A DNA stretch of 13,986 bases from a virus. The notes under the pieces are model-generated. The model did no database searches and was not told the DNA's origin. It saw nothing but the letters and a program-made list of their open reading frames with translations. The stretch is from UHGV virus genome UHGV-0373582; one strand, given 5' to 3'. Below are positions 6,873 to 11,749 of this stretch, piece by piece. The translations under genes and the position numbers were made by a program. Position 1 is the stretch's first letter; each line of letters starts with the position of its first letter.

Positions 6873-7067
6873 ATGCTAGGTTATCAAGCACGAGTAAAAG
6901 AAGAATACGATCAATTAATGCTCAAAATTAATGCACTGAGCAAATTTTTAGAAAGCACAAAGTTTCTAACGATTAATGAAGTTGAGCAAGAATTACTGCT
7001 TTCACAGTTCATCTCAATGAAATCTTACGCAGATTGTTTAGAAAAAAGAATTGCACAATTCAAATAA
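6873..7067 (+). CDS. hypothetical protein (64 aa), predicted helical
   Basis: AAGGA RBS 6 nt upstream; bracketed by the rIIB-end hairpin and a terminator-like hairpin. Confidence 0.45.
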   Translation: MLGYQARVKEEYDQLMLKINALSKFLESTKFLTINEVEQELLLSQFISMKSYADCLEKRIAQFK

Positions 7068-7104: not shown

Positions 7105-7434
7105 ATGATTTATTGTATGAATATCGGTGACACCGACATAAAAGAAATTTCTCTACATGGTAATCATTACGTTAATATTGTGTACTGCAATAAATTCGAG
7201 TTTGGGCATGAAAAACTTGGAGTTCTTTACTGCAATGATGTTATAGTCATGGACAAAAAGAATCTCGATGAACTTGATCGTAATTCTTTAGATGAAAATG
7301 ATCGAATTTACTATGGTACTCTTAAAGTGTATAACGCTTATCTTAGTGGTAAAAAGGAAAGTTTAAATGCAGAAAACGAATCCTGGGTTACAGAGACTAT
7401 TTCAGATTCCGTCATTTACCCTATCGAACAGTGA
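7105..7434 (+). CDS. hypothetical protein (109 aa)
   Basis: ATG 7105 with AAGG upstream; uninterrupted ORF. Its 3' end overlaps the next ORF by 68 nt in another frame. Confidence 0.4.
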   Translation: MIYCMNIGDTDIKEISLHGNHYVNIVYCNKFEFGHEKLGVLYCNDVIVMDKKNLDELDRNSLDENDRIYYGTLKVYNAYLSGKKESLNAENESWVTETISDSVIYPIEQ

Positions 7435-7924
7435 CTTGACTAGTGAAATGAAGGTCAAAATTGCTGATACTGCAAGATACTCTTTAAAACAAAACCCGAA
7501 CCAGGATAAAGCAGAAGTTATCGAAAGATGCCGTATCGCTGTGTACGCAGAGTTTTTTGTGGCAGATTGGCTAAGCGGATATGTCAATAAAGGCCAAGAA
7601 GATGTCGATGATCCGTACACATATGCATGGGATGTATTGGCGCATCCAAAATACTGCGGGCTTCGTGTAGAAGTTAAGACACACCAAACTGACTCACGTT
7701 GGATTTCTGTAACAACAGGATGCAGCGGAGAGTATCCATACGGTTCTGGAATAAATCTAGGGCCCATTCTAAATCATCAAGTCGCTGACTGTATAATTAT
7801 ATTCAACACTAAAGAAATTCATCCAGGTGTCATCCAATACACTCCGAAGTTCATCGGTGACAGAGAAGACCTTCGTAAGGTTGTAAGAAAAAGCAACTAC
7901 AATGGATGGTATCTTTCCATTTAA
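7367..7924 (+). CDS. denB: probable endonuclease IV (DenB-like), 185 aa
   Basis: Good RBS (aaaaggaaagtttaaATG). The 185-aa length and the position between rIIB and ndd match T4 denB. I do not recognise the sequence itself, so this is a positional and length call. An alternative in-frame start is ATG 7448. Confidence 0.5.
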   Translation: MQKTNPGLQRLFQIPSFTLSNSDLTSEMKVKIADTARYSLKQNPNQDKAEVIERCRIAVYAEFFVADWLSGYVNKGQEDVDDPYTYAWDVLAHPKYCGLRVEVKTHQTDSRWISVTTGCSGEYPYGSGINLGPILNHQVADCIIIFNTKEIHPGVIQYTPKFIGDREDLRKVVRKSNYNGWYLSI

Positions 7925-7940
7925 AAATTTTCACAAAACG

Positions 7941-7970
7941 GTTTACATACCACAAGGACTGTGGTACTAT
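7941..7970 (+). promoter_or_regulatory. T-even early promoter (GTTTAC ... TGgTACTAT)
   Basis: GTTTAC at 7941-7946, about 17 nt spacer, TGgTACTAT ending at 7970, followed by the conserved leader ACAACTATCAAC; upstream of the ORF starting at 8005. Confidence 0.65.
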
Positions 7971-8004
7971 ACAACTATCAACTGATATGGATTTGGAGAA
8001 TAAA

Positions 8005-8211
8005 ATGTTTACTACAGCTGAATTAAAACGAGCAAAAGCTAAGAAAGGGCAAGGAAAATATAAAGCTGAATTAGTTAAAGAACTTCAGTTTGCTGAGGCT
8101 GAATTGAATTCAATGATTATTCAAAATGCTCCAGAAACTGAAATTGCTCTTAAACGTATTGCGAATAAGTGTCTTCGTGATGCAATCGTCGATCTTTTAG
8201 CAGATTATTGA
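8005..8211 (+). CDS. hypothetical protein (68 aa), helical and Lys/Glu-rich
   Basis: ATG 8005 with GGAGA RBS 5 nt upstream, downstream of the early promoter. The ORF-track start 7906 would run through the promoter and is rejected. Confidence 0.45.
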   Translation: MFTTAELKRAKAKKGQGKYKAELVKELQFAEAELNSMIIQNAPETEIALKRIANKCLRDAIVDLLADY

Positions 8212-8216
8212 GTAAA

Positions 8217-8480
8217 ATGAAATTTAAATTTTATTACGCTAAACATAAAATAACTGATGAGTTTGTGTCAGTTGAATATTCTAGCGATGATGAAGGTATG
8301 ATTTATACTCGCTTGGGATTATCGCATTGGGAGTCTGATACGCCTTATTTTTCAACTCCCGAAGAAATTACACGCTTAGTTAACGGTCATATGAATGACC
8401 ACTGGTGTGTAATTCTTTCAGATAGTCTTAAAGCGGCTATTAATAGTAATGAAATGAAAATCGCTGAGATTGAACTATGA
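8217..8480 (+). CDS. hypothetical protein (87 aa)
   Basis: First ATG after the upstream stop; the track's 8208 start is a TTG. Weak RBS. Confidence 0.4.
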   Translation: MKFKFYYAKHKITDEFVSVEYSSDDEGMIYTRLGLSHWESDTPYFSTPEEITRLVNGHMNDHWCVILSDSLKAAINSNEMKIAEIEL

Positions 8481-8563
8481 GTTCATTGTGGTGGTGTTTT
8501 GTTTGGTTAATTAGTATTCCATTAATTTGTTTAACATTTACTTTTGTAATGAGGTTATTATGA
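8477..8563 (+). CDS. possible tiny hydrophobic peptide (28 aa)
   Basis: ATGA overlap with the upstream stop (ATG 8477 / TGA 8478-8480) and with the next start (ATG 8560 / TGA 8561-8563). Translation MSSLWWCFVWLISIPLICLTFTFVMRLL is strongly hydrophobic. Very short; could be non-coding. Confidence 0.2.
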   Translation: MSSLWWCFVWLISIPLICLTFTFVMRLL

Positions 8564-8658
8564 AAATTTTGAATTCTGTACTTATTGCTTGTGCATGGTG
8601 GGTTGCGCAAGTTTCGGCAGTGGTGATTGGTATTCACATTTATTACGAATATTTTTAA
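8560..8658 (+). CDS. possible small membrane peptide (32 aa)
   Basis: GAGG RBS (gaggttattATG); translation MKILNSVLIACAWWVAQVSAVVIGIHIYYEYF is a single predicted TM helix. Confidence 0.3.
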   Translation: MKILNSVLIACAWWVAQVSAVVIGIHIYYEYF

Positions 8659-8664
8659 AAAGTT

Positions 8665-8694
8665 GTTTACAAGACTGTTCCTCTGTGGTACTAT
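8665..8694 (+). promoter_or_regulatory. T-even early promoter (GTTTAC ... TGgTACTAT)
   Basis: GTTTAC at 8665-8670 and TGgTACTAT ending at 8694, followed by the same ACAACTATCAAC leader as the 7941 copy. Confidence 0.65.
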
Positions 8695-8722
8695 ACAACT
8701 ATCAACTACGGAGGAACAGAAA

Positions 8723-8836
8723 ATGAAAAAGATTGTTAAAGCTATATGGAATGTAGTTATAATACTAGTAGTTTTGAGTATATTCCCAATCGTTTTAATG
8801 ATTGATGTATTAAACGCTTACTTTGGATTTATGTGA
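8723..8836 (+). CDS. small membrane peptide (37 aa)
   Basis: GGAGG RBS (acggaggaacagaaaATG) downstream of the early promoter; translation MKKIVKAIWNVVIILVVLSIFPIVLMIDVLNAYFGFM. The track's longer 8627 start runs through the promoter. Confidence 0.4.
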   Translation: MKKIVKAIWNVVIILVVLSIFPIVLMIDVLNAYFGFM

Positions 8837-8843
8837 GGAAAAT

Positions 8844-9041
8844 ATGAAGCGTAAAAGCACTGCTTTTACATTTATTGAATGGTTTTTCGATAATATTTTT
8901 CCGGCTTTATTCATTTTCATGCTGATTTTTGCCTTAGGTTCAGTTGTAGTTGGAATTTATTTGATGGCAGTTGTCGGAATGGACATTCATCAAAATGGCT
9001 TAAAATCTGTGGTTGAAACAATTTGGAATGGTGTAAAATGA
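8844..9041 (+). CDS. small membrane protein (65 aa)
   Basis: GAGGAAAAT-ATG RBS; long hydrophobic segment FPALFIFMLIFALGSVVVGIYLMAVVG. Confidence 0.45.
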   Translation: MKRKSTAFTFIEWFFDNIFPALFIFMLIFALGSVVVGIYLMAVVGMDIHQNGLKSVVETIWNGVK

Positions 9042-9148
9042 TGAATTTATTGAGTGGTTGGTTTTATATTCTCATGTTTTACGTCGGTGCAAATTTTCCG
9101 TATTGGATGGGATGGTCAACAACTGCATTCGGATTTTATACTCCTTGA
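9041..9148 (+). CDS. possible small aromatic-rich membrane peptide (35 aa)
   Basis: Start follows directly on the upstream TGA (9039-9041); an in-frame ATG also sits at 9038. Translation MNLLSGWFYILMFYVGANFPYWMGWSTTAFGFYTP. Confidence 0.3.
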   Translation: MNLLSGWFYILMFYVGANFPYWMGWSTTAFGFYTP

Positions 9149-9156
9149 GGTGAATT

Positions 9157-9372
9157 ATGAAAATTTTTAAAGATGTAAAAGTTGGTGAAATTTTTTGTTT
9201 AGATAATGGTGATCAGTTAATTCGTATTTCACCTCTTAAGAGCACTAGCGAGAAAATGACAGTTAACGCTACTTTAGAAAACAACAGTAATAAACGTTTC
9301 TGTATTGAAAATGATACTGAAACATATACCGTAGAAGAGTTTCGGGAATTGAGCGTCGACTGCGACGATTAA
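9157..9372 (+). CDS. hypothetical protein (71 aa)
   Basis: GAGGTGA RBS (cttgaggtgaattATG); soluble-looking, acidic C-terminus. Confidence 0.45.
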   Translation: MKIFKDVKVGEIFCLDNGDQLIRISPLKSTSEKMTVNATLENNSNKRFCIENDTETYTVEEFRELSVDCDD

Positions 9373-9432
9373 TTTATCGGCCGTGTGTATTCATGCGGCC
9401 TTGGAGTAGAAAATAATTTAGAGGAAATTAAT

Positions 9433-9891
9433 ATGAAATACATGACTGTTACTGATCTGAATAATGCAGGCGCAACTGTTATTGGTACAATCAAGGGTGG
9501 TGAATGGGTTTTTGGAACTCCACATAAAGACATTTTGTCTAAACCTGGATTTTACTTTTTAGTGAGTAAATTAGATGGTCGTCCATTTAGTAATCCATGC
9601 GTGTCTGCACGATTTTATGTAGGTAATCAGCGTTCTAAGCAAGGATTCAGTGCAGTTCTAAGTCATATTCGTCAACGTCGGTCTCAGCTTGCACGTACTA
9701 TTGCAAATAACAATGTTCCATACGCAGTATTTTATCTGCCTGCTTCTAAGATGAAACCTCTGACGACGGGATTTGGAAAAGGACAGTTAGCTTTAGCGTT
9801 TACTCGTAATCATCATTCTGAGTATCAAACACTTGAAGAAATGAACCGTATGTTGGCTGATAATTTTAAATTCGTTTTGCAGGCATATTAA
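9433..9891 (+). CDS. ndd: nucleoid disruption protein Ndd (152 aa)
   Basis: GAGG RBS (ttagaggaaattaatATG). Length and position (between denB and stp/ac/52) match T4 ndd, and the N-terminus [13 protein letters not shown] matches my recollection of Ndd. The track's 9385 start is not preferred. Confidence 0.7.
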
Positions 9892-9971
9892 TGAGTAATT
9901 TCCACAACGAACACGTGATGCAGTTCTATCGTAATAATCTTAAAACTAAAGGCGTCTTCGGACGCCAGTGA
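9891..9971 (+). CDS. stp: Stp peptide (26 aa), the T4 peptide known to activate the host PrrC anticodon nuclease
   Basis: Translation [26 protein letters not shown] matches the 26-residue T4 Stp as I recall it. Start overlaps the ndd stop (TAATG). Below the ORF-track size cutoff. Confidence 0.7.
9951..9966 (+). other. UUCG-tetraloop hairpin inside the 3' end of stp (GGCGTC-ttcg-GACGCC)
   Basis: Perfect 6-bp GC-rich stem with TTCG loop covering the last stp codons (KGVFGRQ), just upstream of the next RBS. Confidence 0.5.
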
Positions 9972-9978
9972 GGAAAAT

Positions 9979-10137
9979 ATGAATATCGCAAAATTATTAG
10001 GAGTTATTTCATTTATTTGTTGGATAGTAGCATGTGTTTTAACTATCTGTATTGATGCCAGCAGTGTGTTTTCGCAAGCTTTAGCTCAGGGTATGTGTGC
10101 ATATTTAACATTTGTGTTGTTATCTACTAATGATTAA
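9979..10137 (+). CDS. small membrane protein (52 aa); positional candidate for ac
   Basis: GAGGAAAAT-ATG RBS; translation MNIAKLLGVISFICWIVACVLTICIDASSVFSQALAQGMCAYLTFVLLSTND is hydrophobic. T4 ac lies between stp and 52, but I do not recognise the sequence. Confidence 0.4.
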   Translation: MNIAKLLGVISFICWIVACVLTICIDASSVFSQALAQGMCAYLTFVLLSTND

Positions 10138-10270
10138 GAAAATCTTGGGCTATTCATTAGCTCTTGCTATTTTATTGATAGCATTATATTACGGAATAAT
10201 GTTCGGATTAATTCAAGTCGTGCTTTTCATTTCTGATGTTATTATGGCACTACATTCACTAGTATGGTAA
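10130..10270 (+). CDS. small membrane protein (46 aa)
   Basis: ATG 10130 overlaps the end of the upstream ORF by 8 nt in another frame; translation MIKKILGYSLALAILLIALYYGIMFGLIQVVLFISDVIMALHSLVW. Ends 4 nt before gene 52. Confidence 0.35.
   Translation: MIKKILGYSLALAILLIALYYGIMFGLIQVVLFISDVIMALHSLVW
10221..10245 (+). promoter_or_regulatory. candidate MotA-box middle promoter upstream of gene 52
   Basis: TGCTTTT at 10221-10227, 12-nt spacer, TATTAT at 10240-10245, about 30 nt upstream of the gene 52 ATG; lies inside the preceding small ORF. Confidence 0.35.
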
Positions 10271-10274
10271 ATTT

Positions 10275-11603
10275 ATGCAACTGAATAATCGTGATTTAAA
10301 AAGTATCATTGATAATGAAGCATTGGCTTATGCTATGTACACGGTTGAAAATCGTGCCATTCCAAATATGATTGACGGATTTAAGCCAGTTCAACGATTT
10401 GTTATTGCTCGAGCTCTTGATTTGGCACGAGGAAATAAAGATAAGTTTCACAAACTCGCTTCTATCGCAGGCGGTGTAGCGGACCTTGGATATCATCATG
10501 GTGAAAACTCTGCGCAAGACGCAGGTGCTTTGATGGCTAACACTTGGAATAATAACTTTCCTCTGTTAGACGGTCAAGGAAACTTTGGTTCTCGTACTGT
10601 CCAAAAGGCAGCAGCAAGTCGTTATATTTTTGCTCGTGTAAGTAAAAATTTCTATAACGTATATAAAGATACTGAATATGCTCCAGTACATCAAGATAAA
10701 GAACACATTCCGCCTGCTTTCTATTTGCCTATTATTCCTACTGTTCTTCTTAATGGCGTTTCCGGTATTGCAACTGGTTATGCAACTTACATTCTTCCTC
10801 ATAGTGTTTCTTCTGTCAAGAAAGCTGTACTGCAAGCTCTTCAAGGAAAGAAAGTAACTAAACCGAAGGTAGAATTCCCAGAATTTCGTGGTGAAGTCGT
10901 TGAAATTGATGGGCAATATGAAATTCGTGGAACATATAAGTTTACTTCACGAACTCAAATGCATATCACTGAGATTCCATATAAGTATGATCGTGAAACT
11001 TATGTGAGTAAAATCTTAGACCCGCTTGAAGATAAAGGCTTCATTACATGGGATGATGCTTGTGGTGAGCATGGCTTTGGCTTCAAAGTTAAATTCCGAA
11101 AAGAATACTCTTTGAGCGATAATGAAGAAGAACGCCATGCAAAAATTATGAAAGACTTCGGGTTGATTGAGCGTCGTTCCCAGAATATTACCGTCATTAA
11201 TGAGAAAGGAAAGCTGCAAGTTTACGATAATGTAGTTGATTTAATCAAAGACTTCGTTGAAGTTCGTAAAACTTATGTCCAAAAACGAATTGATAACAAA
11301 ATCAAAGAAACTGAATCAGCATTTCGTTTAGCTTTTGCCAAGGCACATTTCATTAAGAAAGTAATTTCAGGTGAAATTGTTGTACAAGGTAAAACTCGCA
11401 AAGAACTGACCGAAGAACTTTCTAAAATTGATATGTATTCTTCTTATGTTGATAAACTAGTTGGAATGAACATTTTTCATATGACTTCCGACGAAGCAAA
11501 GAAACTTGCTGAAGAAGCTAAAGCTAAAAAAGAAGAAAACGAATATTGGAAAACTACTGATGTAGTTACAGAATACACCAAAGATTTAGAGGAAATCAAA
11601 TGA
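10275..11603 (+). CDS. 52: DNA topoisomerase II medium subunit, GyrA-like breakage-reunion subunit (442 aa)
   Basis: Translation contains the type IIA topoisomerase A-subunit hallmarks GYHHGENSAQDA and DGQGNFGS, plus an RY motif (AAASRYIFARV) at the expected catalytic-tyrosine position. Length matches T4 gp52. Confidence 0.88.
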   Translation: MQLNNRDLKSIIDNEALAYAMYTVENRAIPNMIDGFKPVQRFVIARALDLARGNKDKFHKLASIAGGVADLGYHHGENSAQDAGALMANTWNNNFPLLDGQGNFGSRTVQKAAASRYIFARVSKNFYNVYKDTEYAPVHQDKEHIPPAFYLPIIPTVLLNGVSGIATGYATYILPHSVSSVKKAVLQALQGKKVTKPKVEFPEFRGEVVEIDGQYEIRGTYKFTSRTQMHITEIPYKYDRETYVSKILDPLEDKGFITWDDACGEHGFGFKVKFRKEYSLSDNEEERHAKIMKDFGLIERRSQNITVINEKGKLQVYDNVVDLIKDFVEVRKTYVQKRIDNKIKETESAFRLAFAKAHFIKKVISGEIVVQGKTRKELTEELSKIDMYSSYVDKLVGMNIFHMTSDEAKKLAEEAKAKKEENEYWKTTDVVTEYTKDLEEIK

Positions 11604-11749
11604 GTCCATTCATAGGTATTACAAGCGCTGCATTAGTATCTGGTGGCATTTTACTGGCGGGTTTAGGTGTTGTTCCTGCCGTAGCAGGAGGTCTTCTTGC
11701 GTTCGGAATTCAACGTGTTATCATGACAGTTATCACAGTCATGCAGTAA
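11600..11749 (+). CDS. small membrane protein with glycine-zipper motif (49 aa)
   Basis: ATGA overlap with the gene 52 stop; translation MSPFIGITSAALVSGGILLAGLGVVPAVAGGLLAFGIQRVIMTVITVMQ; followed by a strong terminator. Confidence 0.4.
   Translation: MSPFIGITSAALVSGGILLAGLGVVPAVAGGLLAFGIQRVIMTVITVMQ

Follow-up and report, generated by a model that had tools for sequence, protein, structure and literature searches.

Positions 8217–9148 of a 13,986-nucleotide (nt) stretch of the virus genome UHGV-0373582 (the window, meaning the whole stretch of DNA analyzed) contain five small open reading frames (ORFs) that, by sequence and gene order, are the catalogued T4 genes ndd.6, ndd.5, ndd.4, ndd.3 plus ndd.2a, and ndd.2. 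We estimate a probability of about 0.8 that these genes encode real, early, translationally coupled membrane microproteins that are dispensable in the laboratory. This value covers identity, coding status, early expression and membrane character; the specific target of the peptides lies outside it. An earlier sequence-only reading of this DNA had drawn the same five ORFs of 28, 32, 37, 65 and 35 amino acids (aa) at coordinates that we confirm, and had described them as the least characterised part of the window. It missed that they are named T4 genes, which have stood in the T4 catalogue for roughly 30 years. The present analysis adds coding evidence for all five frames, a model of ndd.3/2a as a single gene, a retained leader ORF, and the recurrence of four of the peptides across genera. 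The corrected ndd.3/2a model and the leader ORF are small but useful refinements, and nothing reported here should surprise a T4 specialist.

The window is a segment of a Tequatrovirus (T4-like) genome whose + strand runs antiparallel to the T4 map. Positions 7300–9900 matched 535 phage records, and at least 80% of the query was covered in 437 of these. The closest match was Salmonella phage UAB_60, with 97.5% identity over 7300–9900 and 99.7% over 8217–9148. DNA identity of the region to Tequatrovirus genomes was 95–99.7% and the annotations agreed: in the annotated relatives RB14, PaulHMueller, UGKSEcP1, T4 and RB7 the gene order runs from denB through the genes listed in Table 1 to ndd, then stp, ac, 52.1 and gene 52, which bears out the earlier placement of the cluster in the denB-ndd-stp accessory region. 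The T4 counterpart, ndd.6–ndd.2 (T4p275–T4p270; Y16x proteins of the "ndd-denB intergenic region" in UniProt), has the same position, order, promoter and junctions, with 94–95% DNA identity and 91–97% identity of the peptides (96% for Ndd.6). A PHROG family was assigned to every peptide (E-values of 1e-17 to 1e-29; Table 1). The window differs from T4 in having one 65-aa gene in place of the split ndd.3 and ndd.2a, a 37-aa rather than a 42-aa ndd.4, and two further genes of 68 and 87 aa between denB and ndd.6, both of which T4 lacks. The hydrophobic cluster does not fill the whole of 8217–9148 as had been proposed, because positions 8217–8480 are taken up by the soluble 87-aa ORF; the 68-aa ORF at 8005–8211 had been overlooked.

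To assess coding status, the window was aligned with 14 Tequatrovirus sequences (15 in all) and the peptides were searched by tblastn against 50,697 phage records. Inside the ORFs the alignment showed just two indels: the T4 reference lacks 1 nt, and one metagenomic contig has 2 nt inserted. Variable sites within the genus were distributed over codon positions 1/2/3 as 2/1/3 in ndd.6, 1/1/9 in ndd.5, 5/2/22 in the DUF7248 gene (ndd.3 plus ndd.2a), 6/3/12 in ndd.2 and 3/5/13 in the adjoining ndd.1. The corresponding ratios of nonsynonymous to synonymous polymorphism (pN/pS) were 0.16, 0.06, 0.09, 0.10 and 0.14, and pN/pS was about 1 or above in both of the other frames. Between genera the bias of ndd.6 was weaker (11/6/12 and 16/7/12, with pN/pS of 0.46 and 0.54). 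Matches were found in 742 phage records for ndd.6, 494 for ndd.5, 601 for ndd.4, 661 for DUF7248 and 519 for ndd.2, the last including about 25 Klebsiella phages, compared with 1080 for Ndd. With an identity threshold of 80%, 488–494 records contained each peptide and 495 contained Ndd, which indicates that the cluster is almost universal in Tequatrovirus. Homologues of all but ndd.5 occur in other Tevenvirinae genera, sometimes reordered. The comparison across T-even genomes that had been proposed as a check on these frames thus came out in their favor, with about 490 of the roughly 495 ndd-bearing Tequatrovirus genomes retaining the frames and four of them present in other genera too. For ndd.5, no match below 60% identity was found among its 494 records, and this peptide is therefore apparently limited to Tequatrovirus.

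The ORFs cover 99% of positions 8477–9148, while 2000 dinucleotide shuffles gave 30% on average and 86% at most; the tiling is beyond chance. Hydrophobicity is weaker evidence, because the T-rich strand yields many spurious ORFs that pass the hydropathy threshold for a transmembrane (TM) segment: 19 of the 39 small + strand ATG ORFs in the window did so, including plainly spurious ones within large genes. Some or all of the five frames might on this account be non-coding chance ORFs that look hydrophobic because of strand composition. Two further observations weigh against our assignment. Within the genus, ndd.4 gave no signal of purifying selection (five variable sites, distributed 2/2/1, with pN/pS above 1), and the protein class of ndd.2–ndd.6 in T4 proteomics is "NA", that is, undetected (PMC9697503 supplement), so the early-infection proteomics suggested as a check gave no support. 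Non-detection is expected of peptides that are tiny, hydrophobic and poor in tryptic sites, although it is still an absence of proof. The chance reading has to contend with the frame-specific codon-position bias of four of the ORFs, and for ndd.4 with a bias that appears between genera, where comparison with Dhakavirus MX01 (61% protein identity) gave 11/5/19 differences by codon position. Peptide sequences, start positions and ATGA overlaps are kept in phages with only 58–72% DNA identity, the tiling exceeds that of every one of the shuffles, and about 24 DUF7248 clusters at 50% identity share invariant residues. We consider the chance reading effectively refuted. From codon-position bias, cross-genus conservation and PHROG and Pfam families we conclude that all five frames are protein-coding, including the 28-aa one, which answers in the affirmative the question raised earlier over the shortest ORFs.

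Early promoters of T4 and PST follow the consensus TTTACW-N17-TAYWAT (Comeau et al. 2014, PMC4122927). The window contains four exact matches (3449, 7942, 8666 and 11806), all on the + strand, against 0.07 expected. One of them, at 8666–8694, is the early promoter that had been placed at 8665; both of its hexamers are kept in 13 of the 15 aligned sequences, with RB7 and IMGVR6 each carrying one change in the -10 element. A 25-nt exact direct repeat, CTGTGGTACTATACAACTATCAACT, at 7959–7983 and 8683–8707 comprises the extended -10 and start-site region of the promoters at 7942 and 8666. An annotated "promoter" in phage Lutter was set aside, as its position differs from 8666 and it is a mere prediction. 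In T4, RNA sequencing places ndd.2–ndd.6 in the early transcript class, and ndd and ndd.1 are early at both the RNA and the protein level (PMC9697503 supplement). We propose that host sigma-70 RNA polymerase would transcribe the cluster immediately after infection from two T4-type early promoters. The first predicted unit (unit A, promoter 7942) would comprise the 68-aa ORF, the 87-aa ORF, ndd.6 and ndd.5, and the second (unit B, promoter 8666) ndd.4, the DUF7248 gene, ndd.2 and ndd.1, with spacings of 0–8 nt. Downstream of ndd.1, a hairpin at 9379–9400 (fold z = -2.08) keeps its stem among relatives and varies in its loop. The lack of a following T-tract sets it apart from canonical terminators, and a part in RNA processing or stability is possible.

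This arrangement resembles the PeSL (promoter-early/stem-loop) cassettes, mobile regulatory elements of T4-type phages (Arbiol 2010; Comeau 2014, PMC4122927), in its promoter consensus, its near-identical promoter repeats and its variable adjoining genes, and Comeau 2014 uses the ndd.4/ndd.5 locus as an example of its own. It appears to differ from them in two respects. The 8666 promoter has no convincing stem-loop directly upstream, where a terminator scan returned none and only a T5A5 palindrome is present at about 8652–8661, and the breakpoints of the 68- and 87-aa genes lie at start-codon microhomologies, not at promoters.

The junctions between the small ORFs agree with the earlier description of ATGA or adjacent start-stop signals. 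The ndd.6 start overlaps the stop of the 87-aa ORF as ATGA at 8477–8480, the ndd.5 start overlaps the ndd.6 stop in the same way at 8560–8563, a 7-nt spacer with a GAGG Shine-Dalgarno sequence separates ndd.4 from the DUF7248 gene (8836 to 8844), and the ndd.2 start overlaps the DUF7248 stop as TGATG at 9039–9043. Starting ndd.2 at the ATG of 9038 instead would create an ATGA overlap, but relatives do not conserve this codon. Upstream of the first junction the gene content varies. Both the 68- and the 87-aa gene are present in the window, RB14 and PaulHMueller, many relatives have the 87-aa gene only, RB7 has only the 68-aa gene and T4 has neither, such that all four combinations occur among close relatives. 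The indel breakpoints are gene-precise and fall at start-codon microhomologies, namely TAAAATG (8001–8007 and 8213–8219) and AAATGAAA inside the 87-aa gene. The 87-aa protein has 67% identity to its Mosigvirus homologue. Its fold was considered as a lead on unit A and rejected: only one of five AlphaFold2 (AF2) models was confident, with a predicted local distance difference test (pLDDT) score of 81, and the model is weak; a Foldseek search of the PDB with it returned no match with E < 0.1.

T4 and RB7, which lack the 87-aa gene, keep its last eight codons as an unannotated mini-ORF, MKIAEIEL in T4 (locus L004, 4498–4521, minus strand) and MKIVEIEL in RB7 (locus L015, 1204–1230), corresponding to window positions 8454–8480. 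In both phages its stop overlaps the ndd.6 ATG by the same ATGA, and the T4 mini-ORF is preceded by the GGAG Shine-Dalgarno sequence that serves the 68-aa gene in the window. Two further ndd.6 homologues at the same position have no annotation. That of Mosigvirus phiC120 (MSSKMWIGIWLLSIPMICIIFSIVLRYL) is coupled by ATGA to the 87-aa homologue, and that of Dhakavirus MX01 (locus L012, 2338–2427) has a TTG start and a TTGA overlap with the upstream ORF. The coupled position after denB is thus shared as ATGA by T4, RB7 and Mosigvirus and appears as TTGA in Dhakavirus, and a TTG at a coupled start would fit re-initiation by terminating ribosomes. As ndd.6 has no good Shine-Dalgarno sequence of its own and an upstream ORF ends at ndd.6 in every arrangement, ribosomes terminating on that ORF at the ATGA would feed ndd.6, and ndd.5 would be fed likewise. 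The pattern is consistent with a dependence of ndd.6 on translational coupling, which appears to have been kept despite deletion of the upstream gene. A single ancestral deletion could also explain the retained mini-ORF.

The genes annotated in T4 as ndd.3 and ndd.2a are, on comparison of the aligned sequences, one DUF7248 gene of 65 aa. NC_000866, the T4 reference, reads ATGAA-CGTAAACGC, whereas the other 14 sequences read ATGAAGCGTAAA (window 8844–8860; T4 166548–166628 region), and this one missing G gives rise to the annotated "ndd.3", which is a PHROG singleton, and a truncated "ndd.2a". In the T4D genome deposited with the HIDEN-SEQ preprint the ORF is intact, without the 1-nt deletion. 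The encoded protein combines a basic N-terminus with one long TM helix and, on the C-terminal side, a conserved GLKSVVETIWNG helix; in its AF2 model (pLDDT 86), helices span residues 6–17, 19–51 (33 residues) and 53–62, with a break at G52. Across 25 diverse DUF7248 members, G52, K54, W61 and G63 do not vary, and conservation of L53 is at least 90% (G-L-K-x6-W-x-G). The roughly 24 DUF7248 clusters came from a profile search of 1.84 billion representative proteins and contain proteins of 47–76 aa, in which the hydrophobic helix is variable and the tail is conserved as (E/Q)xGLKS(V/I)(V/I)Ex(I/V)W(N/E)G. As a separate observation, the tail NGLKSVVETIWNGVK (8991–9038, residues 50–65) resembles about 1.4 copies of an 11-residue repeat, WNGIK...ET, found in phage tape-measure proteins. 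Via 5–10 repeats each, it matched four tape-measure-like proteins of 820–976 aa (P0013, P0019, P0023 and P0025). Homology to tape-measure proteins was rejected in favor of motif resemblance, since the E-values sum many repeats, and the likeness is probably motif-level or convergent.

DUF7248 homologues are present in Karamvirus, Winklervirus and a Klebsiella phage. The order ndd.4-like gene, then DUF7248, is found in Karamvirus PG7, Klebsiella phage Roth34 and Winklervirus Gravdalen, and in PG7 and Roth34 a short hydrophobic ORF is coupled after DUF7248; PG7 also carries an ndd.2 homologue. Shigella phage Sf25 gp120 (P0007, 62 aa) is a natural in-frame fusion that joins the N-terminus and TM segment of ndd.4 to the C-terminal half of DUF7248 (PF26889 + PF23906), which implies that the two proteins share a membrane orientation. 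Adjacency in four lineages and this fusion suggested an obligate complex of the ndd.4, DUF7248 and ndd.2 products. That idea is weakened by the T4-like metagenomic contig L024, where the order is ndd.6-like, ndd.4, ndd.2-like, a 45-aa CxxC protein, DUF7248 and ndd, and by the solitary DUF7248 genes of Aeromonas phage ZPAH1 and of a contig that encodes a P22-type portal. From these gene orders the peptides appear to be independent cassettes that tend to travel together and not parts of an obligate complex.

For ndd.4, which has a GGAGG Shine-Dalgarno sequence 8 nt upstream, the 42-aa annotation of T4 begins at an upstream ATG, in place of which all relatives have ACG; on this alignment the conserved start is 8723, giving 37 aa. 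The window ndd.4 itself was matched to PHROG 3098, and the Pfam family PF26889 (Phage_T4_Y16N) is known here from the precomputed annotation of its homologues, P0007 of Sf25 and the L024 gene. Apart from the Dhakavirus homologue, there is a weak match in a Winklervirus phage and a positional equivalent with a similar sequence pattern in a Klebsiella phage. In the Enterobacter phage PG7 (L017, 1902–2022) the homologue looks frameshifted, with its N-terminus MNIIKKILKAIL... and its hydrophobic C-terminus in different frames, owing either to a sequencing error or to a pseudogene. Synonymous diversity within Tequatrovirus is unusually low over positions 8720–8930, a stretch that takes in ndd.4 and the initial third of the DUF7248 gene: among 15 non-independent sequences, ndd.4 varies at only 1 of its 37 third positions, the neighboring genes at 59 of 231 (binomial p = 2.5e-4). 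RNA structure was rejected as the cause, given an unremarkable fold (z = -1.13) and no Rfam matches; a recent sweep or gene conversion is possible.

In four of the peptides, Kyte-Doolittle hydropathy in a 19-residue window reached 2.2–3.1. Together with the AF2 model of DUF7248, this leads us to infer that each product is a peptide of 28–65 aa that consists essentially of one hydrophobic helix. The N-termini of DUF7248, ndd.4 and ndd.5 are basic (MKRK, MKK..K and MK, respectively) and predict an N-in/C-out orientation of these three in the inner membrane, which would leave short conserved tails in the periplasm, the clearest being the GLK...W.G helix of DUF7248. Several points weigh against a membrane assignment for all five. 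The ndd.2 peptide, which lacks charged residues and has many Trp, Tyr and Phe, reaches only 1.16, below the usual hydropathy threshold, so that the single TM helix earlier ascribed to each ORF stands for four peptides and is borderline for the fifth. Membrane insertion and topology are predictions, with an ambiguous charge distribution in ndd.6 and no charges in ndd.2; T4 annotations label several of the peptides "outer membrane" or "periplasmic", and a signal-peptide reading is possible, for example with the VSA site in ndd.5. The conserved residues cluster in short extramembrane motifs, namely the DUF7248 tail and the G-x-N-x-(P/A)-Y-W-x-G motif of ndd.2, which recurs in PG7 and in L024.

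The products of ndd.1–ndd.6 were called unknown by Kutter et al. 2018 (PMC6071114), and our literature search on ndd.2a, DUF7248 and the Y16x proteins found no function. A phiR1-RT toxicity screen and a DruSM1 knockout paper, taken up as possible functional leads, concern other genes. In T4, the HIDEN-SEQ transposon screen classes ndd.1–ndd.6 as non-essential, with insertions in 6/7 to 18/18 TA sites, and CRISPRi-ART scores all of them as "Not Fit", i.e., non-essential. No knockdown or insertion phenotype is reported under any tested condition. We suggest, with low confidence, that the peptides would be dispensable "monkey-wrench" accessory proteins, each probably binding and modulating a component of the host inner membrane. 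The bacterial microproteins AcrZ, MgrB, MgtS, KdpF and CydX are alike in size range, single TM helix and this proposed partner-tuning mode. They have no sequence relationship to the window peptides, which are phage-encoded and early only, and the likeness is one of analogy and not of membership. The T4 proteins Imm, Sp, rI and Ac are likewise small, early, dispensable and predicted to lie in the membrane or periplasm, but the peptides have no Pfam match to those families and none of their phenotypes has been mapped to ndd.2–ndd.6.

The sequence-only reading had proposed membrane-targeted host shut-off, superinfection exclusion or anti-defence as roles. None of these gained support: PADLOC, NCBIfam and Pfam gave no functional similarity, the genes are non-essential in T4, and they are not among reported defence-challenge hits. 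Host shut-off could be exerted by membrane-damaging toxins that perturb potential or permeability in the manner of the type I toxins TisB, Hok, Ibs and ShoB, which the peptides would resemble, by analogy, in their size of 28–65 aa and single helix. Early expression and the neighboring ndd, stp and ac fit such a role, as does the report that many of the small immediate-early genes of T4 kill the host when cloned (Kutter et al., PMC6071114). T4, however, needs an energised membrane all through infection, and phage fitness is unaffected by knockdown or insertion. What is conserved, moreover, is specific extramembrane motifs (GLK..W.G in DUF7248 and NxPYWxG in ndd.2) and not generic amphipathic helices, which favors binding of a specific partner over generic membrane damage. 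As regards a type I antitoxin RNA, no Rfam family was found in the window and its consensus early promoters are all on the + strand. We regard a toxin role as quite improbable.

Anti-defence or superinfection exclusion would have the peptides neutralise membrane-associated defences or block the entry of competitor DNA, as do T4 Imm and siphophage Sie. The cluster lies in a hyperplastic accessory region flanked by counter-defence genes (rIIA/rIIB, which act against RexAB, and stp), it is nearly universal in the genus yet laboratory-dispensable, and its locus is among the published hot spots of promoter-cassette shuffling (PMC4122927 Fig. 6A). The resemblance of the DUF7248 tail to the WNGIK repeat could be read in the same sense, but the matching tape-measure proteins look like those of Firmicutes phages and the likeness may be convergent. 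A scan of all peptides against Pfam returned only DUF7248 above threshold, with no Imm, Sp, rI or holin family, and PADLOC and NCBIfam scans gave nothing significant, a KwaA match with E = 0.0085 being at chance level. The hits in the HIDEN-SEQ main text under RexAB, RnlAB, CBASS, DarTG1, DarTG2 and minimal medium are other genes only. In one library comparison, which we take to be that with RnlAB because dmd and alpha-gt were the significant genes among the rows examined, q was 1.0 for the rows of ndd.1, ndd.2, ndd.2a, ndd.3, ndd.4 and ndd.6. We therefore think a counter-defence or exclusion role unlikely.

The best available lead to a function comes from lipid synthesis. The deletion sa-delta-9 (52.1 to denB) gives about 50% of the wild-type phage yield and abolishes the stimulation of phospholipid synthesis, and in the overlapping rII-delta-DD2 the specific stimulation of phosphatidylglycerol is lost (Kutter et al. 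2018, PMC6071114); both deletions span the ndd.2–ndd.6 interval. Two circumstances weigh against assigning this effect to the microproteins: the 3.4-kb deletion takes out denB, ndd, ndd.1, stp, ac and 52.1 as well, and the strains assayed for lipids included multiple mutants (PMC6071114). For these reasons the link is only a lead, and that one or more of the peptides cause the T4-induced stimulation of phosphatidylglycerol synthesis is a rather doubtful proposition. Narrower and distinctly improbable is the version in which the determinant acts by binding directly to a lipid-synthesis or envelope-stress component of the host inner membrane; the likeliest candidates for it would be DUF7248, through its invariant and predicted periplasmic G-L-K...W-x-G helix, and ndd.4 or ndd.2. 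Were a target found, it would explain part of the T-even "monkey-wrench" gene set and could account for the old T4 effect on host phospholipid synthesis.

Table 1. Features of the window between denB and ndd, with the evidence for each assignment.
Feature	Position	Strand	Evidence or remarks
denB	7367–7924		
Early promoter, T4-type, after denB	7942–7970	+	TTTACA-17-TACTAT + TG extension
68-aa soluble ORF, RB32ORF266c-like, PHROG 4535	8005–8211	+	PHROG E=4e-24; annotated in RB14, RB7
87-aa soluble ORF, RB14ORF269-like, PHROG 2390	8217–8480	+	PHROG E=3e-45
ndd.6, 28-aa hydrophobic peptide, T4p275	8477–8563	+	PHROG 8851 E=3.2e-17, residues 1–28/28
ndd.5, 32-aa hydrophobic peptide	8560–8658	+	PHROG 5011 E=3.9e-26, residues 1–32/32
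Early promoter, T4-type, ahead of ndd.4	8666–8694	+	TTTACA-17-TACTAT + TG extension
ndd.4, 37 aa, basic N-terminus and one TM segment	8723–8836	+	PHROG 3098 E=3.1e-21, full length
DUF7248 gene (T4 ndd.3+ndd.2a), 65 aa	8844–9041	+	PF23906, 69.0 bits vs cut-off 27
ndd.2, 35 aa, uncharged, aromatic-rich	9041–9148	+	PHROG 4135 E=2.5e-23, residues 1–35
ndd.1, 71-aa soluble acidic protein, final gene of the ndd.4 transcription unit	9157–9372	+	PHROG 2183 E=3e-36
GC-rich stem-loop between ndd.1 and ndd	9379–9400	+	GGCCG...CGGCC stem, GGCCGTGTGTATTCATGCGGCC
ndd	9433–9891		

Upstream of the cluster, denB.1 (6873–7067, 64 aa) belongs to Pfam PF21825, which is named crAss001_48-related or, in a newer precomputed annotation, "Sequestin". 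Beside it lies a 109-aa DUF7418 ORF (7105–7434) whose 3' end overlaps the annotated denB start. Other small single-helix ORFs in the window are ac (9979–10137), 52.1/DUF7396 (10130–10270), motA.1 (11600–11749) and one more at 755–868, which indicates that the whole stretch from rIIB to motA is enriched in tiny hydrophobic proteins.

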